DNA of 64,000 nucleotides from an uncultured Solirubrobacterales bacterium (lineage in GTDB: Bacteria > Actinomycetota > Thermoleophilia > Solirubrobacterales > 70-9), in the NCBI GenBank assembly GCA_963837735.1, contig CAWIOM010000010.1, forward strand, positions 210,917-274,916, given 5' to 3'. This document shows positions 1,236 through 54,464 of this stretch, one piece after another. The position numbers and the translations under genes were made by a program. The notes under the pieces were generated by a model. That model ran no database searches, was not told the DNA's origin, and saw nothing but the letters and a program-made list of their open reading frames with translations. Position 1 is the stretch's first letter. Every line of letters begins with the position of its first letter.

Positions 1236-1695
1236 GCGCCTCGCCCTCGAGGCGCAGCATCTGCCACTCCTCCAGGCGCCGGGCGCCGAGCCCGTCGTAG
1301 AAGCCGAGCGCCAGCTCGTTCCAGTTCAGCGCCGCCCATTCGACCCGGGGGAAGCCGCGCTCGACCGCGAGCGCCGCGACGCGCTCGAACAGCGCCCGCC
1401 CGATCCCCGCCGCGCGGCGCTCGGGCCGCACGAAGATGTCCTCGATCCAGATCCCGCCCCTGCACTCGAAGCTCGAGAAGGTGCCGCAGAGGATCGCGTA
1501 GCCGACCGCCTCGCCGCCGAGCTCGGCGAGCAGCGCCTCGGCCGTCCGCGCCTCGAACAGCGAGTGGGCCAGCACCTCGGGGTCGCCGCTGACCTCGTCG
1601 CTCAGTTTCTCGTAGGCGGCCAGCTCGAGGATCAACCCGAAGAGCGTCTCGACGTCCTCCTCGGTCACCGCTCTGATCGTCAGCTCGCCGGCCAT
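1210..1695 (-). CDS. GNAT-family N-acetyltransferase (diamine acetyltransferase-like)
   Basis: ORF 1210-1743. The likely start is Met at 1693-1695 (MAGELTIRAVTEED...). Acetyl-CoA binding region is IFVRPERRAAGIGRALF. Confidence 0.7.
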   Translation of the reverse strand: MAGELTIRAVTEEDVETLFGLILELAAYEKLSDEVSGDPEVLAHSLFEARTAEALLAELGGEAVGYAILCGTFSSFECRGGIWIEDIFVRPERRAAGIGRALFERVAALAVERGFPRVEWAALNWNELALGFYDGLGARRLEEWQMLRLEGEALRRLGRRG

Positions 1696-1806
1696 CAGGG
1701 CACGGTACACAGGATCTTCACGGCGCCTTCCCCGGCGGTTCACAAGTTTTCCCTGCTAATAGCGAATTCTTCAGTGGAAGAGAAGAACGAGATCAGGGAG
1801 ACGCCG

Positions 1807-4071
1807 ATGACTTCCCGAGTTGACATGCACTGCCATTCCACCGCTTCGCAGCTCTCGCGGCTCGGGGTACAGCGGAGCCTCGGGCTGCCCGAGTGCGCGA
1901 CGCCGCCCGATCAGGTCTACGAGCTGGCCAGGCGCCGGGGGATGGACTTCGTGACGATCACCGACCACGACACGATCGACGGCTGCCTGGAGCTGGCGGA
2001 CCGTCCCGACTGCTTCGTCTCCGAGGAGCTGACCGCCCGCTTTGCCGGCGAGGCCCAGGCGGTACACGTCCTCTGTTACGGGATCACTCCCGGGGACCAT
2101 GAGTGGCTGCAGGCGAACTCCGGCGACGTCGAGGCCTGCGCCGCATACCTCCACGAGAACGAGATCGCCTCTGCGCTCGCGCACCCGTTCTACAACGTCG
2201 AGGCGCCGCTCACCCGGCGCCACCGCCGCCGCCTGGCGGAGCTCTTCCCGGTCTGGGAGGTCCGCAACGGATCCCGCGCCGCGGAGCTCAACATGCCGGC
2301 GGTCATCTACATCGAGACCCACGGCGGCACCGGCATCGGCGGCTCCGACGATCACGCCGGCGTGGACATCGGCCGCACCTTCACCGAGGGGCCGGCCGCG
2401 TCTACGCCGGAAGAGTTTCTGCGCCGGCTCCGCGAAGGCCGGGCCGATCCCGGCGGCGAGCAGGGTAGCGCCGCCAAGTGGGCGCACGCCGCGATGGCGC
2501 TGGCGACCCGGGCCCTGGCACCCGACGGTGCGAGCGGGGGGGAGGGCGCGCCCGACCCCGCCGCGGTCCTGAAGATGGCCCAGCGGGTGATCGGAGAGGG
2601 CGCCGCCCGCGAGGGCAGGGTCGCCGCCGACATCGGCCCCGACGACGCCCGCACGCTGCTCGAGGCCTGGCTGGGCTCGGTCGGCGTCGAGCAGCGCGGC
2701 CGCGAGCTGATCGAGTACATGCAGGCGGACGGCTTCGCCCACGCCGACCTCTACCGCCGCGCCCGGCGCACCCACGAGCGGCGGCTCCGGGCCGCCGTCG
2801 AGCAGGGCGGGGCGGCGGCGTCCGCCGGTGACCTCGGCGCCGCCTTCGGCGGCCTCTTCGAGGCGATCCTGCCGGCCGTCCCCTACGCGCCCGCCACCGC
2901 CTTCCTCGGCGCCGAGAAGGCGAAGCTCGCCGGCGCCGGCGAGCGGCCCCGGGTGGCGCTGATAGCCGACGGGATCGAGGCGATGCACGGCGTCACGCGG
3001 ACGATCGAGCAGATCCGCGAGCGCGGCGTCCCCGGCTTCGACGTCGAGGTCGTCGGCACCGACCCGGGGGTCGACCGCAGGCTGCCGGCCGCAGCCGACC
3101 TCGAGGTGCCGTTCTACGACGGAATGCGGCTCGGGGTTCCCGGCCTCCCCGATCTGGTCGAGACCCTGGCCGAGGGTCGCTACGACCTCGTCCACGTCAC
3201 CGCGCCGGGCCCGGCGGGCGTCGCCGCGACCCTGCTCGGCAGGGTGACCGGGATGCCGCTGGTCGGCAGCTACCACACCGAGCTGGGTGCCTACGCCGGC
3301 ATGCGCAGCGGCGAGGCCGGCATCGAGGCGATGGCGCGGCTGGCGCTCGGCGCCTTCTACGGGGCGCCCTCCGTGGTCCTCTCGCCGAGCCCGTCAGCCG
3401 ACCGCTCGCTGGTCGCCCTCGGCACGGACCCGGCCCGGATCGGCCGCTGGGAGCGCGGCGTCGACGTTTCCCGGTTCGATCCCGGTATGGCCGACCGCGA
3501 TGCCTTCCCGGGCGAGATCAAGGTCCTCTACGCCGGGCGCCTGACCCGCGAGAAGGGGGTCGATCTGCTCGCCGAGAGCTTCGTCCGTGCCCAGACCGTC
3601 GACCCGCGCCTGCACCTGCTGCTCGCCGGCGGCGGGCCGGAGGAGGAGGAGCTGAGGGCGAAGCTCGGAGAGCGCGCCACCCTCCTCGGCTGGCTCGACG
3701 GCGAGGACCTGGCCCGCGCCTACGCCAGCGCCGACCTCTTCCTCTTCTGTTCGCGCACGGACACCTACGGCCAGGTCGTCGTCGAGGCCGGGGCAAGCGG
3801 CCTGCCCGTGGTCGCCGTCGCCGAGGGCGGCCCCGCCTCGCTGATCGAGAACCGCCACACGGGGATGCTCTGCAAGCCCGATGCCGACCACATCGCCGGC
3901 ACCGTCCTGCAGCTCGCCTCATCGCCGCTGCTGCGCCGGCACCTGGGCGCCTCGGCCCTGCGCGCCGCCCGCCGGCGCACCTGGGAGGGGGCGCTCGAGC
4001 AGCTCGCCCGCGGCTACCGGCGGGCGCTCGAGCCGGGCGCCGGGCGAAAAGAATCAACCCGCGCAGCCTGA
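1807..4071 (+). CDS. PHP-domain phosphoesterase fused to GT4-family (GT-B) glycosyltransferase
   Basis: ATG at 1807 lies inside ORF 1564-4071. The N-terminus has PHP signatures (VDMHCHSTAS, VTITDHDTIDG, GGSDDHAG). The C-terminus has GT4 signatures (YAGRLTREKGVDLL, TDTYGQVVVEAGASGLPVVA). The gene ends 9 nt before ppk1. Confidence 0.8.
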   Translation: MTSRVDMHCHSTASQLSRLGVQRSLGLPECATPPDQVYELARRRGMDFVTITDHDTIDGCLELADRPDCFVSEELTARFAGEAQAVHVLCYGITPGDHEWLQANSGDVEACAAYLHENEIASALAHPFYNVEAPLTRRHRRRLAELFPVWEVRNGSRAAELNMPAVIYIETHGGTGIGGSDDHAGVDIGRTFTEGPAASTPEEFLRRLREGRADPGGEQGSAAKWAHAAMALATRALAPDGASGGEGAPDPAAVLKMAQRVIGEGAAREGRVAADIGPDDARTLLEAWLGSVGVEQRGRELIEYMQADGFAHADLYRRARRTHERRLRAAVEQGGAAASAGDLGAAFGGLFEAILPAVPYAPATAFLGAEKAKLAGAGERPRVALIADGIEAMHGVTRTIEQIRERGVPGFDVEVVGTDPGVDRRLPAAADLEVPFYDGMRLGVPGLPDLVETLAEGRYDLVHVTAPGPAGVAATLLGRVTGMPLVGSYHTELGAYAGMRSGEAGIEAMARLALGAFYGAPSVVLSPSPSADRSLVALGTDPARIGRWERGVDVSRFDPGMADRDAFPGEIKVLYAGRLTREKGVDLLAESFVRAQTVDPRLHLLLAGGGPEEEELRAKLGERATLLGWLDGEDLARAYASADLFLFCSRTDTYGQVVVEAGASGLPVVAVAEGGPASLIENRHTGMLCKPDADHIAGTVLQLASSPLLRRHLGASALRAARRRTWEGALEQLARGYRRALEPGAGRKESTRAA

Positions 4072-4079
4072 GCGAGGGG

Positions 4080-6191
4080 ATGGCCAATTCGCCGGGGTAC
4101 GATTGCCCGATCGACGATCCGGCCCTCTACTTCAACCGCGAGCTCTCCTGGCTCGACTTCAACCAGCGCGTCCTCGAGCTCGCCGAGGACCCCTCCGTTC
4201 CGCTGCTCGAACGGCTGCGCTTCTGCGCGATCTATGCCTCCAACCTCGACGAGTTCTTCATGGTCAGGGTCGCCGGGCTCTTCGACCAGCTCGACGCCGG
4301 GATCGACGCCCGCGGCCCCGACGGTCTGGCTCCCGGGGAGCAGATCGACGCCATCCAGGCCCGGGTCCTGGAGCTCGACCGGCGCCTGCACCGCTGCTTC
4401 GACGGCGTGCTGCGGCCCGCTCTCGCCGAGGAGGAGATCAGGATCGTCTCGCTCGACTCCGCGACCGAGCAGGAGCGGCGAGAAATCGACAGCCGCTTCC
4501 ACGAGCAGGTCTTCCCGGCGCTGACGCCGCTGGTGATCGGGCTCGGCCGGCCGTTTCCCTACATCTCGAACCTCTCGCTCAGCCTCGGCGTCCTGCTTCG
4601 CGACCCCGAGAGCGGCACCGAGATCATCGCCCGCGTCAAGGTGCCGAAGGAGCTGCTCGGCCGCTTCATGCCGCTCGGCGAGGAAGGCACCGACTTCGTC
4701 CCGTTGGAGGAGGCGATCGCGGGCAACCTCGACGCCCTGTTCCCCGGCACCGAGGTCGTCGATTACGGATATTTCCGCGTCACCCGCGACGCCGACTTCA
4801 ACATCTCCGACGAGGCCGACGATCTCCTCCAGGCGGTCCAGGACGAGATCCGCCGCCGCCGCTTCGGCGAGGTCGTGCGGCTCGAGATCGCCGCCGGGAT
4901 GAACCCGAAGCTGCGCGAGCAGCTGATCGACGCGCTGCGCCTCGAGGAGCGCGAGGTCTACGACGTCGACGGGCTGATCGACCTCGGCGACCTCGGCAAC
5001 GTCGCCGACGTCCCCGGGCACGGCGAGCTTCGGTACCAGCCCTGGACCCCGGTCACTCAGGCGCGCCTGCAGGGCGAGGACGAGGAGCCGGTCGACATCT
5101 TCGCCGCCATCCGCCAGGGGGACATTCTCGTCCATCACCCGTACGACTCCTTTGCGAGCTCGGTCGAGCGCTTCGTCGAGCAGGCGGTCGCCGACCCCGA
5201 CGTGCTGGCGATCAAGCAGACGGTCTACCGGACGAGCGACGACTCGGCGCTGGTCCCGTCGCTGATCCGCGCCTCCGAACGCGGCAAGCAGGCGGTCTGC
5301 ATGGTCGAGCTCAAAGCCCGCTTCGACGAGGAGGCCAACATCCACTGGGCCAAGTCCCTGGAGGAGGCCGGGGTCCACGTCGTCTACGGCATCCCCGGGC
5401 TCAAGACCCACGTCAAGTCGATCCTCGTCGCCCGCCGCGAGGGCGACAGGGTGCGCGAGTACGTCCACGTCGGGACCGGCAACTACAACCCGAAGACGGC
5501 CCGTCTCTACACCGACTTCGGGCTCTTCACCGCCGACCCGGAAATAGGCGCCGACGTCGCCGAGATGTTCAACTTCCTGACCGGGTACGGCCGCCCGGCC
5601 GAGTACCGCAAGATGCTCGTCTCGCCGACGACGATGCGCGACCGGGTGATCGAGGAGATCGAGGCGACCGTCGACGCCCACCGGGCCGGCGAGGAGGCGC
5701 GGATCGCCCTGAAGATGAACTCGCTCGTCGACGCCCGCTGCATCCAGGCCCTGTACGAGGCCTCGCGGGCGGGCGTCCGCGTCGACCTCAACGTGCGAGG
5801 CATCTGCTGTCTGCGGCCCGGAGTGGCGGGGATCTCGGAGAACATCCGGGTCGTCTCGATCGTCGGCCGCTTCCTCGAGCACTCGCGCGTCTACGCCTTC
5901 CAGCGCGGCGAGGAATCGAGCGTCTTCATGGGCTCGGCCGACCTGATGCCGCGCAACCTCGACAGCAGGGTCGAGCTGGTCGCGCCGGTCGAGGACCCCG
6001 ATCTGCGGGCCGACCTGCTCGACGTGCTCGAGCGCTGCTTCGCCGACAATGTCAACTCCTGGCTGCTCGACGCGAACGGCGTCTGGAGCCGGGTCGGGGT
6101 CGGCGAAGCGGAGCCGCGCAGCGTCCAGGAGGAGATGCGCGAGCGGCACCTGGCGCGCGCCGCCGAGCACCTCGCGGCCGCCGCGGGCTGA
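4080..6191 (+). CDS. ppk: polyphosphate kinase 1
   Basis: Uninterrupted 703-aa ORF. The N-terminus YFNRELSWLDFNQRVLELAED and the whole length are typical of PPK1. Confidence 0.95.
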   Translation: MANSPGYDCPIDDPALYFNRELSWLDFNQRVLELAEDPSVPLLERLRFCAIYASNLDEFFMVRVAGLFDQLDAGIDARGPDGLAPGEQIDAIQARVLELDRRLHRCFDGVLRPALAEEEIRIVSLDSATEQERREIDSRFHEQVFPALTPLVIGLGRPFPYISNLSLSLGVLLRDPESGTEIIARVKVPKELLGRFMPLGEEGTDFVPLEEAIAGNLDALFPGTEVVDYGYFRVTRDADFNISDEADDLLQAVQDEIRRRRFGEVVRLEIAAGMNPKLREQLIDALRLEEREVYDVDGLIDLGDLGNVADVPGHGELRYQPWTPVTQARLQGEDEEPVDIFAAIRQGDILVHHPYDSFASSVERFVEQAVADPDVLAIKQTVYRTSDDSALVPSLIRASERGKQAVCMVELKARFDEEANIHWAKSLEEAGVHVVYGIPGLKTHVKSILVARREGDRVREYVHVGTGNYNPKTARLYTDFGLFTADPEIGADVAEMFNFLTGYGRPAEYRKMLVSPTTMRDRVIEEIEATVDAHRAGEEARIALKMNSLVDARCIQALYEASRAGVRVDLNVRGICCLRPGVAGISENIRVVSIVGRFLEHSRVYAFQRGEESSVFMGSADLMPRNLDSRVELVAPVEDPDLRADLLDVLERCFADNVNSWLLDANGVWSRVGVGEAEPRSVQEEMRERHLARAAEHLAAAAG

Positions 6192-6217
6192 CGCTCGCGC
6201 CCGGGCCTATCACTAGG

Positions 6218-6850
6218 ATGGCGCCGATGCCGCGCCTTTCGCTACTGCCCCGGGACGACGGCTTCTTCGAGCTCTTCAGCGAGGCTGGCCAGAACACTCT
6301 GCATGCCGCGCGCCTGCTCGACGGAGATGATGGGCACCTGGCCCGACGATGCCGGTCTCGGCCGGGAGATCCTCAAGGCCGAGCAGGAGGGCGACAGGAT
6401 CACCCACGACATCATCCAGCGGCTCAACTCGACCTTCGTCACGCCGATCGACCGCGAGGACATCTACGGCCTCGCCACCCAGATGGACGACATCGTCGAC
6501 TACACCGAGGAGGCCGCCGACTTCCTCGCCCTCTACAAGATCGAGGCGCCGATGTCGCAGGCCCAGGACCTGACCGAGGTTCTGGTCAAGTCCTGCGAGC
6601 AGCTCGCCGAGGGGCTCGAGCACCTGCCGGACTTCAAGGGGCCTCGACAAGTACTGGATCGAGATCCACCGGCTCGAGAACGACGGCGACCGGATCTCCC
6701 GCGACGCGGTCGCCTCGCTCTTCTCCAACGGGATCGACCCGATGGTCGTGATCCGCTGGAAGGACATGTTCGCCGTGCTGGAGAACGCGATCGACGCCAC
6801 CGAGACCGCGGCCCAGATCCTCGAGGGCATCGTCATCAAGAACTGCGTGA
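6218..6850 (+). pseudogene. DUF47/PhoU-like phosphate-transport regulator (YkaA-type), frameshifted as sequenced
   Basis: A family-typical sequence is spread over three frames. Segment 1: MAPMPRLSLLPRDDGFFELFSEAGQNTLHAARLLD. Segment 2: EMMGTWPDD...AEQEGDRITHDIIQRLNSTFVTPIDREDIYGLATQMDDIVDYTEEAADF. Segment 3: LDKYWIEIHRLENDGDRISRDAV...ILEGIVIKN. Junctions are near 6321 and at the GGGG run 6638-6641. Confidence 0.7.
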
Positions 6851-7952
6851 GCTCGGACGTCATCATGGGCATCGTCGATCGCGCGGCGCTCGGCTTCGGA
6901 CTTCACCAACGGGTTCCACGACACCTGCGAACGTGATCTCGACCGTCGGTCTCGACCGGCGCGGCGCCGCCGCAGATGGCGATCGCGGTCGCGTCGATGC
7001 TCAACTTCGTCGGCGCCTTCATCTCGATCGCGGTCGCGGCGACGGTCGCCACGACGTCGTCGACGCGGGCGCGATCACCCCGACGGTCGTCTTTGCCGGG
7101 CTGGTCGGGGCGATCGCCTGGAACCTGATCGACCTGGTACTTCGGCCTCCCGTCGAGCTCTTCGCACGCGCTGATCGGCGGCGTGGTCGGCGCGGCCGTG
7201 GTCGGCCGACGGGACCGACGCGGTGTTCGGCCGAGGCCTGCTCGGCAGCGTCCTGATCCCGGCCCTGCTCGCCCCGCTCGCCGCCTTCGTCGTCGCCGGG
7301 ATGCTCGATCGTCGTCATCTACAGGATCGTCGGCCGCCGCCAGCCGGGTCGCGTGACCCGCGCCTTCCGCTACGGGCAGATCGTCTCCGGGGGCCTCCTG
7401 GCCCTCGCCCACGGCGCCAACGACGCGCAGAAGACGATCGGGGATCATGGCCCTGGCGCTGGTCGCCAACGGCACCCTCGGGCGGCAATGCCGATCCGCC
7501 CACCTGGATGATCGTCTCGGCCGCCGACGGCGATCGCGCTCGGGACCTACAGCGGCGGCTGGCGGATCATGCGCGACCGGCGGACGCGGATCATCAAGAT
7601 GGATGCGGCCCAGGGATTCTCGTCGCAGGGGGCGGGGGCGGCCGTGATCCTGCCTCGACCCATCTTCGGCTTCCCGATCTCGACCACCCACGCGATCAAC
7701 GGCGGCGTGATGGGGGCGGGCGCCGGCAAGCGGGTCTCCGCGGTGCGCTGGGGCGTTGCCGGCAACATCGTCTTCGCCTGGCTGCTGACTCTGCCGGCGG
7801 CGGCGGCGATCGGCGCGGCGACGTACGGGGTGACCGCGATCTTCGGCACGGGGCTTTGGGCCCGGTGCTGGTCAGCCTGCTCGGCCTCTCCGCTGATCGC
7901 CCTCGCCTTTGCCCGCCGCTCCAAGCAGGGGGCGCCGCTCCCGGCGAGCTGA
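6847..7952 (+). pseudogene. pit: PiT-family inorganic phosphate transporter, at least ten frameshifts as sequenced
   Basis: Conserved PiT blocks appear in alternating frames: FTNGFHDT / ANVISTV / MAIAVASMLNFVGAFISIAVAATVA / WYFGLPSSSSHALIGGVVGAAVV / LALAHGANDAQKT / GIMALALVANG / GFPISTTHAINGGVMGAGAGKRVSAVRWGVAGNIVFAWLLTLP. There are no stop codons within the conserved frames. Confidence 0.75.
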
Positions 7953-7983
7953 TGGCGCCCGTGCCTCAAAAACCCCCCGCCTG

Positions 7984-8223
7984 ATGCTCGCCGTCGTCGT
8001 CGAGACCAAGGAGCTGGCGGAGACCGTCGTCGCCTCGATCGTCGGCGGCGTCGGCGTCACCGTGGTCTTCTCGATCGCGATCTGGGGCGTGGCGCGTTTC
8101 GTCGACTTCAGCCGCAACGACCGGCCGCTCGCGGCCGGCGGGGCGGCGGCGGTGACGGTGCTGGCGCTGCTGTCGACGGCGGCCAGCGTCGTCCTCGGCA
8201 TCATCGTCATGACCAGCAAGTAG
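7984..8223 (+). CDS. small membrane protein (2 predicted TM helices), unknown function
   Basis: ATG at 7984 lies inside ORF 7909-8223. Two hydrophobic stretches: VVASIVGGVGVTVVFSIAIWGV and AAAVTVLALLSTAASVVLGIIVM. Confidence 0.4.
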   Translation: MLAVVVETKELAETVVASIVGGVGVTVVFSIAIWGVARFVDFSRNDRPLAAGGAAAVTVLALLSTAASVVLGIIVMTSK

Positions 8224-8253
8224 CGGGCGGCTGGCCGCCCGTAGAATCGACTC

Positions 8254-8616
8254 ATGCTCCGACTGCGAAACCTGCGCAACGCGGCGATCGTCCTGCTGCT
8301 CGCCGCCGCCGTCGCCTTCGCGCCGGCCGGTAGCAACGCGGCCGACGTCGTCCTGACCCTGATCACGATGGCCTTCCTTACCGCGATCGCCTGGACCGTC
8401 TACGTGCTCAGCCGAGAGAACCAGCTGACCCTGGCGACGCTCAGCGACCGGCGGCGGGCGATCCTCTACGGGGCTCTGGGGCTGATCGTGCTGCTGATCG
8501 CAGGCACGGATGAGCTCTTCTCGAGCGGCGGCGGGACGGTCGCCTGGGTCCTCCTGTTCGCCGCCGCGGTCGCCGCGATCTACATGGTCTGGAAAGAAGC
8601 GAACACCTACAGCTGA
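8254..8616 (+). CDS. membrane protein (about 4 TM helices), unknown function
   Basis: 120-aa ORF with four hydrophobic segments and codon usage like its neighbours. Confidence 0.5.
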   Translation: MLRLRNLRNAAIVLLLAAAVAFAPAGSNAADVVLTLITMAFLTAIAWTVYVLSRENQLTLATLSDRRRAILYGALGLIVLLIAGTDELFSSGGGTVAWVLLFAAAVAAIYMVWKEANTYS

Positions 8617-8690
8617 TCCGGGGCGATAAGGCCGCCCGATTGTTCGTTTGAGCGCGCAACCCGTGCGCCCGCTGCTGCCACGGTTGGGCG

Positions 8691-9047
8691 GTGCCGCCGA
8701 GAATTGCCAGAAGCCGCGTTCGGGGGGAGGAGGGGAGCGCCTCCCTGGAGCTCGTCGGCGTGCTGCCCTTTCTGCTCTTGGCGATCCTCGTCGCCGCGCA
8801 GCTGGCGATCGCCGGGGCCTCCCTGTGGTCGGCGAGCGTCGCGGCGCGGGCCGGTGCGCGGGCCTCGCTGGTCGGCGGCGCGGCCGGCGCGGCGGCGCGG
8901 CGCGCCCTGCCGCCCGGCCTGCGGGAGGATGCCCGGGTCGGCGCCGCGGGCGGCGGAGTCGCGGTCGAGGTATCCGTCCCGCGGCTGCTCCCGGGCCTGC
9001 CTGATCTGAACGTAGCCGCGAAGACGAGGCTCGGCCCCGGTGGTTAG
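8691..9047 (+). CDS. TadE-like pilus-assembly (pseudopilin) protein
   Basis: The N-terminus GSASLELVGVLPFLLLAILVAAQLAI matches the TadE/TadG N-terminal motif followed by a TM helix. Confidence 0.6.
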   Translation: MPPRIARSRVRGEEGSASLELVGVLPFLLLAILVAAQLAIAGASLWSASVAARAGARASLVGGAAGAAARRALPPGLREDARVGAAGGGVAVEVSVPRLLPGLPDLNVAAKTRLGPGG

Positions 9048-9369
9048 GGAGCAGGGACAGGCAACCGTCGAGCTCGTCGCCGCCCTGCCGGCGCTGCTGC
9101 TCGCCGGCTACGTCGCCTTCCAGCTGTTGGCGACCGGCTATGCGATGACCCTCGCCGACGGCGCCGCAGAGGCGGGCGCTCTGGCCCTCGCCTCCGGGCG
9201 GCCGGCGCTGCGGGCGGCCCGCGAGGCCCTTCCCGGGTGGGCGGCGGAGGACGCCGATGTCAGCGTGGCCGGCGGCCGGGTCACGGTGCGGCTGCGGCCG
9301 CCGGCCCTTTCCCCGGCGATCGCCGACGGCCTCGCGGTGACCGGGACGGCCTCGGCGAGGCCGCGGTGA
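9040..9369 (+). CDS. TadE-like pilus-assembly (pseudopilin) protein
   Basis: The N-terminus GQATVELVAALPALLLAGYVAFQLL is TadE-like. The gene overlaps the upstream gene by 8 nt. Confidence 0.65.
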   Translation: MVREQGQATVELVAALPALLLAGYVAFQLLATGYAMTLADGAAEAGALALASGRPALRAAREALPGWAAEDADVSVAGGRVTVRLRPPALSPAIADGLAVTGTASARPR

Positions 9370-9968
9370 ACGGGCGGGCGATCGTCGTTACCGGGGTCGG
9401 CGCGGCGGAGGGGGCCAGGCCGCTGGCCGCGGCGCTCGCCTGCGCGGGGACGGCCCCCGACCGGGCGGCGCTCCTGGTCGAGCTGACCGACGGGCGGCCG
9501 CCGCAGCCGACGTTGGTCGCCTCGGCCGCGGCGCGCGGCCTTGAGGAACGCCTCGCCGCTCACCTGCCGGAGGCGGCGGTGGCTTCTCGGGGGCGGATCT
9601 GCCACCTGGCGCTGCCCGCCGGATCGGAGGGGCTCGAGCGGGCGCCGTCGGCGCTGGCGCTCGTCCGCGACTCGCTCGGCGTCGTCTGCCTGCCGCCGGC
9701 GCTGCTCGGCGGCGCCGTCGCCTCGGGCCGGCTCGCGATCGCCGCCGCGTTGCTTCGCGCCGACCTCGATCGCGACCGCGCCCTGACCGCGCTCGCGGTC
9801 CGCGACCTGATCGGCCGCGGGGTGGCGGTCGCCGTCGCCAAGCGGCCGCTGGCCTGGATGCCCTCGCAGCGGGCGCTGTTCGGCGCCCTTCCGGCGGGGG
9901 CGGCCGGCGGCCTCGGCCCGCGCCTGCTGCGTCGGCTGGCGGTCGCGACCTCGGAGGCGGCGGCGTGA
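9366..9968 (+). CDS. hypothetical protein, weak resemblance to a P-loop-less ParA/CpaE-like fold
   Basis: GTG at 9366 overlaps the upstream stop (GTGA). AIVVTGVGAAEGARPLAAALACAG occupies the position of a deviant Walker A but lacks GK[ST]. The gene lies between Tad-like genes. Confidence 0.45.
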   Translation: MNGRAIVVTGVGAAEGARPLAAALACAGTAPDRAALLVELTDGRPPQPTLVASAAARGLEERLAAHLPEAAVASRGRICHLALPAGSEGLERAPSALALVRDSLGVVCLPPALLGGAVASGRLAIAAALLRADLDRDRALTALAVRDLIGRGVAVAVAKRPLAWMPSQRALFGALPAGAAGGLGPRLLRRLAVATSEAAA

Positions 9969-11321
9969 GCCGCGGGCGGCAGAGCGGCCAGGCGCTGCCG
10001 CTGGCGCTGGGCGGCTGCTTCGTCCTGATCGCCGGTGCCCTGGCCCTGGTCGCGATCGCCGGGGCGGTGACCGGCAAGGGCAGGGTCCAGCGGGCGGCCG
10101 ACCTCGTCGCGATCTCCGCCGCCCGCTCGATGCGCGACGACCTACCCCGCCTGCTGGCGCCGCCGACGCTTCCCAACGGTCTCCCCAATCCCGCTCACAT
10201 GGAGAAGGCGGTCTACCTCTGGCGCGCCCGCGGGGCCGCGTATCTCGCCGCCCGCGCCAACCGGGTCGGGCTCGGGCGGCTGCGGGTGTCGTTCCCGGAC
10301 GTCCTCTCGTTCGCCCCCGTTCGGGCCAGGGCGACCGTGCTCGGCGAATTGACCGCGGGCCGCCGGCCGCCTGTGGTCGCCTCCGCGGTTGCCGAAGCGG
10401 CGGCCCCGGCCGTGTCGCTCGGGGCATTCGGCTCATTGCCGGCGGTGGCGAGCGGCGGCGGTTACTCGGGCGCGCTCGCCTATCGCAACGGCGAGGGAAT
10501 GCGCCCGGACGTCGCCTCCGCCTTCGACCGCATGGCGGCGGCCGCCTCGCGTTCCGGGCTCACCCTGCTCGTCAACTCCGGCTTCCGGTCGGACGCGGAA
10601 CAGGCGAAGCTGTTCGCCGCGCACCCGGACCCGCAATGGGTCGCTCCCCCCGGGCAATCCCTCCACCGCTGCGCCACCGAGCTCGACCTCGGGCCCGAAT
10701 CCGCCTACGGCTGGCTGGCCGCGAACGCCTCCGCCTTCGGCTTCCTCCAGCGCTACTCCTGGGAGCCCTGGCACTTCGGCTTCGACGCCGGGCCGCCGCC
10801 GTGCTCGGACGCCGGCGACACCGTCGGCGTGGCCGCCGGAGGGGGCCGGGGCGGGGAGGACGGAGCGCTGTCGGGAGGCGCGGGGCTGCCGGGGTTCGTC
10901 CCGCCGCGCTTCCGGGCGCCGCTGCTGCGGGCGGCGGCGCACTGGAACATCTCCGCCTCCCTGCTCGCCGCCCAGCTGATGGCCGAGTCGAACTTCAACC
11001 CCTTCGCCACCTCATCGGCCGGCGCCCAGGGCATTGCCCAATTCATTCCCGGGGACGGCAGCCGCCTACGGCCTCGACGACCCCTTCGACCCGGTTGCCG
11101 CGATCGAGGCGCAGGCCCACCTGATGCACGACCTGATCTCCCAGCTCGGCTCGCCCCAGCTCGCCCTCGCCGCCTACAACGCCGGCCCCGCGCCGGTCGA
11201 AGCCTGCGGCTGCGTTCCCTCGATCCCGGAGACGGCGGCCTACGTCAGCCGCATCCTCGGCCTGCTCGGCGGCGCCGGCGCCCTGGCGCTGCCGGCCTTC
11301 GAGGTGCGGCTGGTCTCCTGA
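9965..11321 (+). pseudogene. TadG-like membrane anchor + VanY/M15B D,D-carboxypeptidase + SLT lytic transglycosylase fusion (one frameshift near 11051)
   Basis: TadG-type N-terminus: GQALPLALGG...RVQRAADLVAISAARS. M15B motifs: SGFRSDAEQAKLF, SLHRCATELD, WEPWHF. SLT motifs: MAESNFNP, GAQGIAQFIPG|TAAAYG, ALAAYNAGP. The frame changes at CCCGGGG (11048-11054). The GTGA start overlaps the upstream stop. Confidence 0.75.
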
Positions 11322-11338
11322 TCGGGCGAGCGGCGGTC

Positions 11339-12586
11339 TTACGAAACCGCAGGCCGGCGACGCTGAGGAGCGCTGGGTCGGTCCCGGTGCATGGTGTGGC
11401 GCTTGCGATGGTGGCGCTTGCGATGGTGGTGCCTGCGAATCCTGACGCAGCGCTTCCTGCCGTGGACGGTCTTGCGCTTTGTGCCTTTTCGGCACCTCTT
11501 CCGTTTCGGAGCCGCACTTGGTGGGCGTTGCGCGAGGTCCGCGCATTCGGGCGGCGCCAGCCCGATCGACGTCGACGGGAACAGCCCGGCGTCGATTCCC
11601 GGGGTGAGAGCGCCGGCTGCCACCGTCACCGCAACCGGGTCATTGCCGCAGATGCCTGTGTAATCGCGCTCGCGTGTAGCCGCCCGGCACCGATTCACCG
11701 GTGAAGTAGTGGACGGTGTAGACGCCGGCGGGTACGCGCCTGATCAGGTACCGACCGTCGGCGCCCGACTCCCCACAGGCGCCGATCCTTACCCGGCCGA
11801 GCGTCGTGAAGGTGCAGGCGCCGACCCCGGCCACCGGAGCGTGGGTGACCGCGTCGGTCACCTGGCCGGCGATCCGGCCCCCTTCGATCAGGGTGGCGTT
11901 GACGTTCGGCGTCAACTGTCCCGCCTGCACCCCGACGGAGTCGGCCTGCAGGAGGCCGGGCTCGCCGTCGAAGTACTGGTCGAAGAATTCGAGTTGTTCG
12001 GGCGGCCGGAATTCGACGGCGTAGCCGCCGCCCGCCAGGCCGAGGATCGTGTACTGGCCGGCGCCGCCGGTGGTCGCGCAGACGGTTACCGCATAGAGGC
12101 TCCTCGGTTCCGCACAGACTTCGACTCCAGCGATCGGGCCGCCGCCGGAGTAACCGGTGACGCGACCGCCGATCATGCCGCCTTCGTCGAGCGCGGCGTC
12201 AATCCCGGCGAACTTCGCCGGTCGTGACTTTGACCAGGTTCGCAAGCGAAGGGGTCGGGCTTGCCGTTCCACGCCTGGTAGGCGTAGTTGAGGCCCTCGA
12301 CGGCCGAGAGGAATTCGACCGCGTACCTCGCTTCCGGTAGTTCGCCGATCGAGTAGCTGCCGTCAGCCGCTGAGTGAGCGCAGAATTCGACGACTTCTTC
12401 GAGATGGTTTTCGGACGTCGCGCACACCCGCACCCCGGCGATCGGCACATGAGTGGCGGCGGCGGTGACCGTTCCCGCGATCGAGCCGGTCGTAGCGGCC
12501 GGGGCGGTGCCAGGGGCCGCCAGCATCGCGAGACCCGCGAGCGCGAGCGCGAGCAGAGCCCGGCCTGAGCGCGCGATGTCGCACAC
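11339..12586 (-). pseudogene. secreted CarboxypepD_reg-like repeat protein with Cys-bracketed polybasic C-terminal tail (three frameshifts as sequenced)
   Basis: Signal peptide: RSGRALLALALAGLAMLAAPGTAPA. Repeats look like GSIAGTVT..PIAGVRVCA...DGSYSIGELP..YAVEF. The pieces lie in ORFs 12173-12586, 11640-12272 and 11339-11698. The tail is KRKRCRKGTKRKTVHGRKRCVRIRRHHHRKRHHRKRH. Confidence 0.65.
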
Positions 12587-12587
12587 C

Positions 12588-13725
12588 TCAGCCCCGCCGC
12601 TTCCTGTGGATCTTCACGCAGCGCTGCTTGCCCCGCACCCTCTTCTTCCTGAAGCCGCGGCGGCAGTGCAGGCGCCTCTTCTGCCGACGCACCTGCGGCG
12701 GCAGCACCGGCACCACGGGGGGCGGCACCGCGGTCGAGGGATTCGACTGGAACAGGCGGGCGCCGATGCCGGTGACGGCGCCGGGCGCGAGGAGGTCGAT
12801 CGTGCTCGCCGCGGCGAGGCTCGTCTGTTCGTCGTAGTAGCGGGTCTGGAAGCCGTCGTTTTCGCCGAGGAAGAGCTCTTCGCCGAAGAATTCGCGGCCC
12901 AATTCGACCGAGAAGCCGATCTTGTAGGAGCCGGAGGCGAGCGGGCCGACGGAGTACTGGCCGAAGACGCCGGTTTCATCGCAGGCCTCCGGTTCGAGGC
13001 CGAGCGCTTCGACTGCGCAGACGAGGATTTCCTGCAGCGGCTCACCTGTGTTCGCTCGCACCGTTCCCTGCACCCGACCACCGGCTTCCAGGGAGGCGTC
13101 GACCCCGGAGTGGACGGCGCCCAGCGTCGCGGAGACCGCCTCCGCTTCCGGGCCGTGCCGCTTGTGGTCGAAGTACTGGGTCGCGAAGCTGCCGGTGGCC
13201 TGAAATTCGACCCGGAAGCTGCCGGGAGTCGCGAACCTGATCGCGTAGCGACCGTCTTCGCCGGTCCAATTGCAAAGGCCTTTTTCGGCGTCGGGCAGAC
13301 GCCAGGCGCAGACCCGGTCTTCCTGGGCCGGCGGTCCGCCGGCGGTGACCGTGCCGGCGATCACCGCCGCCGGTGTCAGCTCGCCGTCGACACCGCTGAC
13401 CGGGCCGCCGGCGATGGTGACCCGTTCTTCCCGGTACTGACCGAAGTAAGGCAGCTCGCCGGGCCGGAACTCAATTTCGTATTCGCCGTCCTCGAGTGCT
13501 TCGATCGAGTAGGCGCCGCCCGTGCCGGTTTCGTCGCAGCTCTGTTCGCGTTCGCCTTCGCCTTCTTCGCTTTCGACAAAACGGGAAGCGCAGACCTCTG
13601 CGCCTTCGAGGCCGAGGTGGGTATCGGCGCCGATCACGTTGCCGGCGATCGAGCCGGGCGCCGCCGCCGGCGCCGCAGACCGGTGCCAGAAGCGCGCAGA
13701 ACGCCGAGGCGACTGCGGCCACCAA
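12588..13725 (-). pseudogene. secreted CarboxypepD_reg-like repeat protein with Cys-bracketed polybasic C-terminal tail (frameshift in the signal-peptide region; start uncertain)
   Basis: ORF 12588-13637 contains three CarboxypepD_reg-like repeats and the tail QKRRLHCRRGFRKKRVRGKQRCVKIHRKRRG. The hydrophobic leader WLVAAVASAFCALLAPVCGAGG lies in another frame upstream (about 13660-13725). Confidence 0.6.
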
Positions 13726-13803
13726 CCAGCTCTTCCCCCACCTGTATGGCCCCTGAGAGGTCAGGTGGCGGAGGATAGAGCTCCTCCGGCTAGACTGGCG
13801 CCG

Positions 13804-53516: not shown

Positions 53517-53951
53517 TCAATCGTAGGCCGACAGGGGGAGCTCCAGCATCAGGGTCACCGGCCCGTCGTTGACCAGGGCGACGCCCATGCAGGCGCCGAA
53601 GACTCCCTTCTTCGCCCCCAGCCGCTCGCAGAAGCGGTCATACAGCGGCTCGGCCTCCTCTCCGGGGGCCGCCTGCAAATAGCTCGGCCGGTTGCCGTGG
53701 CGGGCGTCTCCGTAGAGGGTGAACTGGCTGACGCAGAGGACCTCGCGGTCGCCGAGCGGCTCGTTGAGGCGCCCCTCGGCGTCGTCGAAGATCCGCAGAG
53801 CGCGGACCTTGTCGGCGAGCCGGTCCGCCTGCTCGGTGTCGTCTTCGACCGAGACGCCGAGCAGGACCAGCAGCCCCGGGCCGATCTGGGCGACGCGCTC
53901 GCCCTCGACGTCGACGGCCGCCTGGCTGACCCGTTGGACCAATGCCCTCAC
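53517..53951 (-). CDS. dtd: D-aminoacyl-tRNA deacylase
   Basis: MRALVQRV...LLVLLGV...SQFTLYGD...GNRPS. Confidence 0.92.
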   Translation of the reverse strand: MRALVQRVSQAAVDVEGERVAQIGPGLLVLLGVSVEDDTEQADRLADKVRALRIFDDAEGRLNEPLGDREVLCVSQFTLYGDARHGNRPSYLQAAPGEEAEPLYDRFCERLGAKKGVFGACMGVALVNDGPVTLMLELPLSAYD

Positions 53952-54034: not shown

Positions 54035-54409
54035 CTAGGCGGCGTCGAACAGTGCGCAGTCCTCGATCGCCTGACAGCTGCAGGCGGTTGCCGCGGCGAG
54101 CCAGCCCCGCATCGCCTCGGTCCGCTCGATCAGGGCCTCGACTTCAGGCAGCTTGCGCTCGGCGAGCTCGCGGAGCTGCTCGTGCGCCGGCGCTCCGGCG
54201 TCCGTCGAGGCAAGCAGGGTGCGTACCTGGGCGAGCGAGAACCCGGCCTGCTTGGCTACGTCGATCGTCCCCAGCCGCCGGACCGTCTCGGAGGTGTAGC
54301 GGCGCCGGCCGGACTCCCGCTCCGGCTCCGGCAGCAGCCCATGGCGCTCGTAGTACCGGATTGCCGACACGTTGACGCCGGCCCGCTCCGCGACCTCCCC
54401 GATGCTCAG
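54035..54409 (-). CDS. MerR-family transcriptional regulator (apparent CTG start)
   Basis: The HTH LSIGEVAERAGVNVSAIRYYERHGLL starts upstream of the first GTG (54370). The only in-frame candidates after the TAG are CTG (54407-54409) or ATC (54422-54424). The C-terminus has Cys-x-Cys. Confidence 0.75.
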   Translation of the reverse strand: MSIGEVAERAGVNVSAIRYYERHGLLPEPERESGRRRYTSETVRRLGTIDVAKQAGFSLAQVRTLLASTDAGAPAHEQLRELAERKLPEVEALIERTEAMRGWLAAATACSCQAIEDCALFDAA

Positions 54410-54437
54410 CGTTGCTTCCGTGATCTCGAATCGCCCC

Positions 54438-54464
54438 TTGACCTAAACCTCGGTTCAGGGTCAA
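54438..54464. promoter_or_regulatory. MerR-type operator-like inverted repeat TTGACC-N15-GGTCAA in the divergent promoter
   Basis: TTGACCTAAACCTCGGTTCAGGGTCAA lies between the MerR start and ATG 54476. Confidence 0.45.

Follow-up and report, generated by a model that had tools for sequence, protein, structure and literature searches.

A conserved two-cysteine polybasic tail ends many secreted proteins of Solirubrobacterales: a candidate C-terminal retention or sorting element

What is the role of the short, strongly basic, two-cysteine tail with which two adjacent genes for secreted repeat proteins end in an uncultured Solirubrobacterales bacterium? The genes lie on the minus strand of a 64,000-nucleotide stretch of DNA (GenBank assembly GCA_963837735.1, contig CAWIOM010000010.1, positions 210,917 to 274,916; hereafter the window) that has a G+C content of about 71%, and a first-pass annotation, made from the sequence alone, had put the tail forward as a candidate new C-terminal retention or sorting tag. 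Solirubrobacterales are among the commonest Actinomycetota of soil, very few of them have been cultured, and to our knowledge their cell surface is essentially unstudied. We find that the tail is a conserved, modular and strictly C-terminal element, confined to one actinobacterial lineage among the matches listed, and that it is attached to exported, acidic, adhesin-like proteins. The candidate tag is thus supported, and on balance we incline to the view that it is a lineage-specific modular mini-domain of the Solirubrobacterales/Thermoleophilia, acting as a non-covalent cationic anchor to an anionic component of the envelope, a view that draws on sequence patterns and on structure prediction.

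When all six frames of the window are translated, a strict form of the motif has just two matches, both on the minus strand (12609-12665 and 11438-11494). To call the two tails near-identical, as had been done, was an overstatement: their 18-residue cores share eight identical residues, the rest being mostly similar in the K/R sense. The consensus is P-K-P-L-K-C-[KR]-K-G-F-[KR]-K-K-x-V-x-G-K-x-[KR]-C-V-[KR], followed by a K/R/H-rich end; in an alignment of 22 tails, C, G, G and C are invariant. The anatomy of the tail was drawn from 299 unique examples, for which the regular expression had fixed only C, G, G and C, so that the conservation seen at the F, V, K, V and K/R positions is independent of the search. 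With the first cysteine as position 0, the core reads C0, [KR]+1, K+2, G+3, F+4 (94%), [KR]+5, K+6 (84%), K+7 (81%), V+9 (92%), G+11, K+12 (91%), [KR]+14 (98%), C+15, V+16 (98%) and [KR]+17 (100%); it is preceded by P-5 (52%), K-4 (60%), P-3 (53%), L-2 (60%) and K/R/H-1 (88%), and is followed by a run rich in K, R and H. Measured from position -6 to the end, the tail has a median length of 35 residues, a median net charge of +17 and a K/R/H content of 55%, and the 30 residues before it are 27% proline, with alanine, glycine, threonine and serine. The K/R ratio is 1.76 in the tails, 0.59 in the protein bodies and as low as 0.27 in neighbouring genes, which argues that the richness in lysine is selected and is not a by-product of GC bias. 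The conserved positions, together with the synonymous character of changes between orthologues, fit the earlier suggestion that selection acts on the tail itself. No hydrophobic segment was found in the last c. 75 residues of the 299 proteins (over 15 residues, the highest Kyte-Doolittle hydropathy reached 1.65 at most, with 0.6 as the median), in agreement with the first reading of the window tails as lacking both LPXTG and a hydrophobic anchor. The family may be defined by C-x2-G-[FYT]-x4-[VI]-x-G-x3-C-[VI]-[KR], some 45 residues or less from the stop, behind a Pro/Gly-rich linker and on a signal-peptide protein, and both window genes have all of these features. In a few cases (P0094, P0119, P0128 and carriers in loci L061 and L086) the protein ends with two tails in tandem, e.g. 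...CRKGFKRRNVRGRIRCVKVCRRGFRSVRVQGRARCVKRK...

The motif extends far beyond the two paralogues of the window, to very different protein bodies. A profile of the 22-tail alignment, searched without a word index over 1.84 billion cluster representatives (50% identity), matched 273 clusters at E<=1e-3; this index-free search provided the breadth, word-indexed searches with tail profiles having given short fragments only. Among the 150 of these 273 matches that were listed, nearly all had the match at the very end of the protein, and the tail-bearing cluster proteins, 47 to 2469 amino acids long, have highly diverse N-terminal parts. At the DNA level, a degenerate pattern for the core (47 bits, with TGC/TWC fixed) picked out at least 120 loci in the species-representative genomes of GTDB, about 0.01 being expected by chance. 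All of these loci come from metagenome-assembled genomes (MAGs), and single genomes give at least 4-6 of them. The labels among the matches listed were Solirubrobacterales or Conexibacteraceae (104), Thermoleophilia or Thermoleophilaceae (two), and Actinomycetota, Actinomycetes or Actinobacteria only (13), with a single Alphaproteobacteria label, on a 2.5-kb contig (L014), that is likely to be a binning error. The distance from motif to stop codon is 7-45 residues in 124 of the 127 genomic occurrences, with a median of 13 residues after the second cysteine; the exceptions, in L014, L022 and L096, are clear tails situated 236-442 residues before the next stop, and may reflect read-through, fused open reading frames (ORFs) or real internal copies.

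The proteins that carry the tail are of extracellular types, and neither an internal nor a cytosolic location of the motif, the alternatives that the first-pass annotation had wished to see excluded, is indicated. Signal-peptide-like N-termini were present in 69 of 89 5'-complete carriers, as against 95 of 231 other ORFs in the same loci (Fisher p = 5e-9, the calls being made with a crude home-made heuristic). Pfam domains in 99 carriers were chiefly CarboxypepD_reg (39), divergent InlB B-repeat (27), SpaA (17) and NHL (13), with further occurrences of fn3, TIG, PKD, beta-helix and beta-propeller domains, and NCBIfam added choice-of-anchor Z and Q domains and similarity to MSCRAMM SdrD and to S-layer proteins; the names given to the carriers in their sources are generic. 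The bodies are net acidic in 94% of cases, with a median charge of -25. One carrier family of about 1300 amino acids, found in L008, L009, L045, L049, L077, L092, L105 and L117, consists of about nine 'NDDFA...GEPxHAG...SVWY.WTP...LAVYTGS' modules followed by an InlB B-repeat and the tail, and is kept beside purF and purH.

What shape might such a tail take? AlphaFold2 modelling of the product of the first of the two window genes (gene 1) with 24 homologues gave a mean predicted local distance difference test (pLDDT) score of 84.5, with three beta-sandwich domains, an all-beta build in keeping with the prealbumin-like fold of CarboxypepD_reg (PF13620) proteins, and a disordered linker, and Foldseek related the fold to the TIE protein, SdrD B domains and the SpaA, GBS52 and BcpA pilins, i.e. 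to sortase-anchored adhesins and pilins of Gram-positive bacteria. The tail of gene 1 was modelled as a beta-hairpin with strands F329-V334 and K337-K342 (pLDDT 80-84), and the same hairpin was obtained with the tail alone (core pLDDT about 91); the first cysteine stands four residues before strand 1, and the second lies within strand 2. A cationic hairpin is thus predicted, and the two cysteines would probably form a disulfide tying the N-terminal loop to the second strand. Each of the three repeats in the body of gene 1 also has an invariant pair of cysteines in the homologue alignment (C16/C34, C110/C122 and C207/C219), so that oxidative folding outside the cell fits. Of the suggestion that the tail could be a stapled basic hairpin, the hairpin has therefore gained from the modelling and from the weak match described next, and the staple is still deduced.

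A profile search of the Protein Data Bank (PDB) with the tail retrieved one entry, a four-module cysteine-rich eggshell membrane protein (CREMP; 9pgb), the modules of which (CPKGTTCKMIDGHPQCV) have the spacing C-x2-G-x5-[VIM]-x-G-x3-C-V that is seen in the tail; the match was weak (E = 1.2e-4 summed over four repeats, no single module being significant), and Foldseek with the tail alone found nothing significant (E > 4). CREMP modules have a loop over a small beta-hairpin, held by C1-C3 and C2-C4 disulfides, like a truncated epidermal growth factor (EGF) domain, and are defined by four cysteines in the arrangement Cx4Cx5Cx8C (PMC12723725). The likeness comprises the spacing, written more closely as C-x2-G-[FT]-x4-[VIM]-x-G-x3-C-V, and perhaps the N-terminal loop over a small hairpin, of which the hairpin is predicted for the tail, and it extends to the 'CRKGT' of the second window gene (gene 2), which is similar to CREMP 'CPKGT'. 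The tail, however, has only the cysteines that align with C2 and C4, so that it lacks the four-cysteine arrangement of these modules and retains the cysteines of one of the two disulfides, and it is polybasic, bacterial, single-copy and C-terminal. We regard the resemblance as an analogy of structure, probably convergent and not due to homology, that lends support to a disulfide-stapled hairpin.

Neither in the window proteins nor in the 99 carriers is the tail covered by any model of Pfam (2025) or NCBIfam (June 2026), tail-only ORFs had no precomputed Pfam match, and no prior description was found in the searchable literature on Solirubrobacterales or Thermoleophilia anchors, on polybasic tails or under motif strings. 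It appears to be a new sequence family within a known kind, that of C-terminal surface-retention or sorting elements, with an unusual design in which a single short cysteine hairpin is combined with a polybasic run and there is no hydrophobic helix. The layout is reminiscent of sortase substrates: the tail stands at the C-terminus of signal-peptide proteins with beta-sandwich repeats of the Cna-B, SdrD-B or SpaA kind, it follows a Pro-rich linker like that which spans the wall before an LPXTG signal, and it has basic residues at the end (the tails being 55% K/R/H). A basic C-terminal cluster alone does not define the LPXTG family, however, and the tail has a conserved two-cysteine hairpin in place of the LPXTG pentapeptide and hydrophobic helix. 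No LPXTG-like pentapeptide occurs in either window tail, no LPXTG-type signal was found in 1.04 Mb of DNA scanned, and no sortase-like partner was seen near carriers. PEP-CTERM/exosortase, GlyGly-CTERM/rhombosortase and related CTERM signals depend on a hydrophobic helix that the tail does not have, and no NCBIfam sorting-domain model matched, so that apart from its basic end the tail shows none of the defining features of the known CTERM and LPXTG signals. Nor is it like the C-terminal sorting domain of the type IX secretion system (TIGR04183-type), a beta-sandwich of about 80-100 residues that belongs to Bacteroidota: no such model matched, the core of the tail has about 23 residues, and its hosts are Actinomycetota.

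Similar in principle are the GW/SH3b modules of InlB and Ami and the CWB2, SLH, LysM and choline-binding repeats, which, as we propose for the tail, provide a non-covalent C-terminal hold on anionic wall polymers. These domains fold over 40-80 or more residues, mostly occur in tandem and have Pfam models of their own, whereas the tail amounts to one hairpin of about 20 residues with a basic extension; models for SLH, LysM, GW/SH3_8, CWB2, choline-binding, PG_binding and WxL gave no C-terminal match in the window proteins or the 99 carriers. Lactoferricin B, arenicin, tachyplesin and thanatin are short, amphipathic, cationic, disulfide-closed hairpins that bind anionic lipids, lipopolysaccharide or lipoteichoic acid, heparin or DNA, but they are free antimicrobial peptides and not the tails of large secreted proteins, and there is no sequence relationship. 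In mycobacteria, the actinobacterial surface protein HBHA has a Lys/Pro/Ala-rich C-terminal domain that binds sulfated glycans, and some tails (e.g. P0029) similarly run on into KKPAKKK repeats; HBHA differs in having neither the cysteine hairpin nor a signal peptide, and in being a single protein, not a modular tag.

How, then, might the tail work? In the explanation that we prefer, its modules would be a flexible Pro/Gly-rich linker, a core of about 23 residues folding as a beta-hairpin stapled by a Cys-Cys disulfide, and the K/R/H-rich end. After export, the cationic hairpin and end would stick non-covalently, and mainly electrostatically, to an anionic constituent of the producer's own envelope, for which a teichoic-acid-like or an acidic or sulfated wall glycopolymer, or anionic membrane lipids, are candidates; the linker would span the wall and the acidic body would be displayed outside, the tail thereby taking the position filled elsewhere by LPXTG or other anchors. 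A possible hint at an anionic glycan partner comes from the tandem gene pair itself, which is conserved, without breaks, in three further contigs (L001, L123 and L125) with differing neighbours. In L001 (1-9864), it immediately follows a cluster of polysaccharide genes (Wzz, Wzy_C, flippase, sulfotransferase, GT2, GT4 and a WecG/TagA-like protein), and in L125 (7953-9887) it adjoins a BcsA-like GT2 gene whose product has a PilZ domain.

Several points weigh against this explanation. The link with polysaccharide genes is anecdotal, being confined to L001 and L125 and missing from L123 and from the window; so basic a tail should be hard to pass through Sec against the membrane potential; the signal-peptide calls were crude; the window copies are frameshifted (see below) and might be pseudogenes in this genome; and a scan of IMG/VR found no phage proteins with the tail, endolysin types included, so that this pointer to wall binding is missing.

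The same electrostatics would equally serve the binding of external anionic material, such as extracellular DNA, an acidic exopolysaccharide matrix, clay or silica, or humic matter, the carriers then being released to serve in the matrix or in adhesion, where they would fix cells to soil particles or to a biofilm. This is possible, if unlikely: the carriers have the repeat build of adhesins, they come without exception from soil MAGs and metagenomes, and two of the orthologous pairs adjoin exopolysaccharide synthesis genes, but the carriers have no other retention device (no transmembrane segment and no LPXTG), the Pro-rich linker with a terminal tag mirrors the layout of wall-anchored proteins, and the conserved core, with its invariant G, F, V and C, suggests a specific ligand more than a general stickiness.

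Somewhat more doubtful is the idea that a sorting or attachment machinery peculiar to the Solirubrobacterales/Thermoleophilia, as yet undiscovered, recognizes the tail as a tag and either cleaves it or joins the protein covalently, for example by coupling a selected lysine enzymatically to peptidoglycan or a wall glycopolymer in place of sortase and LPXTG. A sharp motif in a strictly C-terminal position on many unrelated secreted proteins per genome is what such a machinery would use, and the preference for lysine over arginine contrary to genomic bias, the choice-of-anchor domains in some carriers and the lack of LPXTG-type signals in the DNA scanned all point the same way. Against it, the tail is without the hydrophobic helix common to all known sortase, exosortase and rhombosortase signals, and no candidate processing enzyme recurs beside carriers when the ORFs of the 120 loci listed are clustered. 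The neighbours that do recur (a Na+/H+ antiporter, dtd, thrC, purF, purH, pyrE, an SPFH protein and a LuxR regulator) are housekeeping genes, and therefore speak of synteny and not of a sorting enzyme.

That the cysteine pair and nearby histidines bind metal in the manner of a zinc knuckle, or that a His-rich end scavenges metal, with no disulfide being formed, seems very improbable. Tails do have a median of three histidines, frequent at +10, +19, +21 and +22, but no position has His in more than about 34% of cases, and the four conserved Cys/His ligands of zinc ribbons and knuckles are replaced by two invariant cysteines only; moreover, the proteins are exported, other domains in them have paired cysteines too, and the nearest structural match (CREMP) uses the equivalent pair as a disulfide.

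If the preferred explanation of a cationic envelope anchor is near the mark, a tag common to dozens of architectures would allow the surface proteome of these organisms to be listed from sequence only, and it would point to an unknown anionic envelope component; should a sorting route as yet unknown be involved instead, it would be a general surface-display route replacing sortase and LPXTG in abundant, almost uncultured soil bacteria. In either case, hundreds of proteins that at present go under 'hypothetical' or 'carboxypeptidase regulatory-like' would be better annotated once the new family was added to Pfam and NCBIfam, and a tag of about 35 residues could make a compact display or immobilization tag.

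How sound are the copies in the window? The two genes are indeed head to tail and one nucleotide apart (gene 1 stops at 12588, and the GTG of gene 2 is at 12586), and each has a Pro-rich spacer before a tail that is in frame with its own last repeat. The description of each gene as a leader plus three CarboxypepD_reg-like repeats holds in that PF13620 is matched by both, significantly by gene 1 (E = 2.3e-12) and by the pieces of gene 2 (E = 2.9e-10 and 7.7e-7), but it had silently joined frames: both ORFs are interrupted in this sequence, with one frameshift in gene 1 and three in gene 2. Each of the four breaks is accounted for by one extra base (13680, 12244, 12210 and 11666), and deletion of the four gives two full ORFs.

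In gene 1, body and tail form a single ORF (13637..12588, 349 amino acids) that ends with ...PPQVRRQKRRLHCRRGFRKKRVRGKQRCVKIHRKRRG and the stop. The leader, WGKSWLVAAVASAFCALLAP, is out of frame with it through the extra G at 13680, the removal of which gives ...ALLAPSAAPAAAPGSIAG..., matching orthologues; the leader also resembles those of the orthologues P0005 and P0007. The start codon is uncertain, either TTG at 13725, which would leave the leader without a charged n-region, or one further upstream. The tail is present in every full-length homologue of gene 1, down to 30% identity. In gene 2, the intact 400-amino-acid orthologue from L001 falls successively on frames -1, -2, -3 and -1 (tblastn), and the tail reads ...PKRKRCRKGTKRKTVHGRKRCVRIRRHHHRKRHHRKRH... 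to a stop codon at 11339-11341. The orthologues of gene 2 in L001, L123 and L125 retain C-x2-G-T...V-H-G-[KR]-[KR]-R-C, and within the orthologues of each gene the subtype of the tail, with F or T at +4, is maintained under synonymous substitution. The threonine at +4 (C-x-x-G-T), constant in gene-2 orthologues where phenylalanine otherwise occupies 94% of tails, is also that of CREMP 'CPKGT'.

The frameshifts are probably local consensus errors in a MAG. A codon-model Viterbi segmentation showed that 6.2-13.7 kb is rich in same-strand frame switches, the remainder of the window consisting of long intact ORFs, and all five breaks inspected between 11.0 and 13.7 kb resemble single-base insertions. 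Errors are favoured over decay because similarity to the respective orthologue is as high in the fragments of gene 2 (67-70%) as in the unbroken gene 1 (68%), and because many of the related genomes in the scan are 'MFD' MAGs, which we take to be long-read assemblies. The orthologous pairs on JGI metagenome contigs are intact, with the same paralogue-specific tails, and the reading frame of the tails is thus secure. That the tails are an artefact, through out-of-frame translation of GC-rich DNA or as parts of pseudogenes in decay, this genome then having no functional tail, is least credible of all: the five frameshifts and the density of frame switches would suit it, but the tails are Lys-rich with AAG codons, unlike out-of-frame GC-rich DNA, they are in frame with the last repeat and conserved in intact orthologues and hundreds of other proteins, and the similarity values just given speak for consensus errors. 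The frame-switch-dense stretch (6187-13700) also spans a PhoU_div and probable phosphate-transporter region (6303-8220), a TadG/VanY/SLT gene and both tail genes, and in the convergent TadG-like gene the SLT domain is split by an extra G, CCCGGG[G], near 11043.

Table 1. Positions of the two tail genes, their parts and selected other genes in the window
Feature	Position	Strand	Basis or remark
Gene 1 leader, signal-peptide-like, RWGKSWLVAAVASAFCALLAP	13681..13743	-	Three-frame translation; frame differs from that of the body
Gene 1 frameshift, one extra G, CCG[G]TCT, between leader and mature protein	13680	-	
Gene 1 mature body, three CarboxypepD_reg/Cna-B-like beta-sandwich repeats	12738..13679	-	Pfam PF13620
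Gene 1 Pro-rich linker, residues 301-320 of the 349-amino-acid ORF	12678..12737	-	AlphaFold2 pLDDT < 50, without secondary structure
Gene 1 tail, RRQKRRLHCRRGFRKKRVRGKQRCVKIHRKRRG, and stop	12588..12677	-	
Gene 1 tail core, C325-K342	12612-12665	-	
Gene 2 start (GTG 12586) and clear signal peptide, MCDIARSGRALLALALAGLAMLAAPGTAPA	12497..12586	-	Aligns to the L001 gene-2 orthologue
Gene 2 body, three CarboxypepD_reg-like repeats	11582..12496	-	Pfam; tblastn of the L001 orthologue
Gene 2 single-base insertions	12244 (T), 12210 (C), 11666 (C)	-	Sequence contexts and repair
Gene 2 linker, FPSTSIGLAPPECADLAQRPPSAA	11510..11581	-	
Gene 2 tail, PKRKRCRKGTKRKTVHGRKRCVRIRRHHHRKRHHRKRHTMHRDRPSAPQRRRPAVS, and stop; Thr(+4) subtype	11339..11509	-	
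Gene 2 tail core	11441-11494	-	
Fusion of N-terminal TadE/G-like segment, VanY D,D-carboxypeptidase and SLT lytic transglycosylase	9965-11321	+	Convergent with gene 2
Polyphosphate kinase Ppk1	4080-6191	+	Unrelated context
835-amino-acid protein, PHP-associated segment and GT4 glycosyltransferase	1564-4071	+	Unrelated context

On one side, the pair in the window is flanked by TadE-like genes (8691-9369) and the TadG/VanY/SLT fusion, and on the other by MaoC-like and permease-like ORFs, named by eye from their translations. A link between the Tad pilus genes and the pair was considered and rejected, as different genes flank the orthologous pairs in L001, L123 and L125 (in L123, an NHL/Vgb-lyase-like propeller). 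Elsewhere in the window (53537-53950 and 54038-54442, both on the minus strand) there is a D-tyrosyl-tRNA deacylase (dtd) gene, with a MerR-family regulator adjacent to it in the place of a third carrier. The dtd DNA is 82-87% identical to copies in many loci, and dtd clusters as the neighbour of a tail-carrying gene in 14 other loci.

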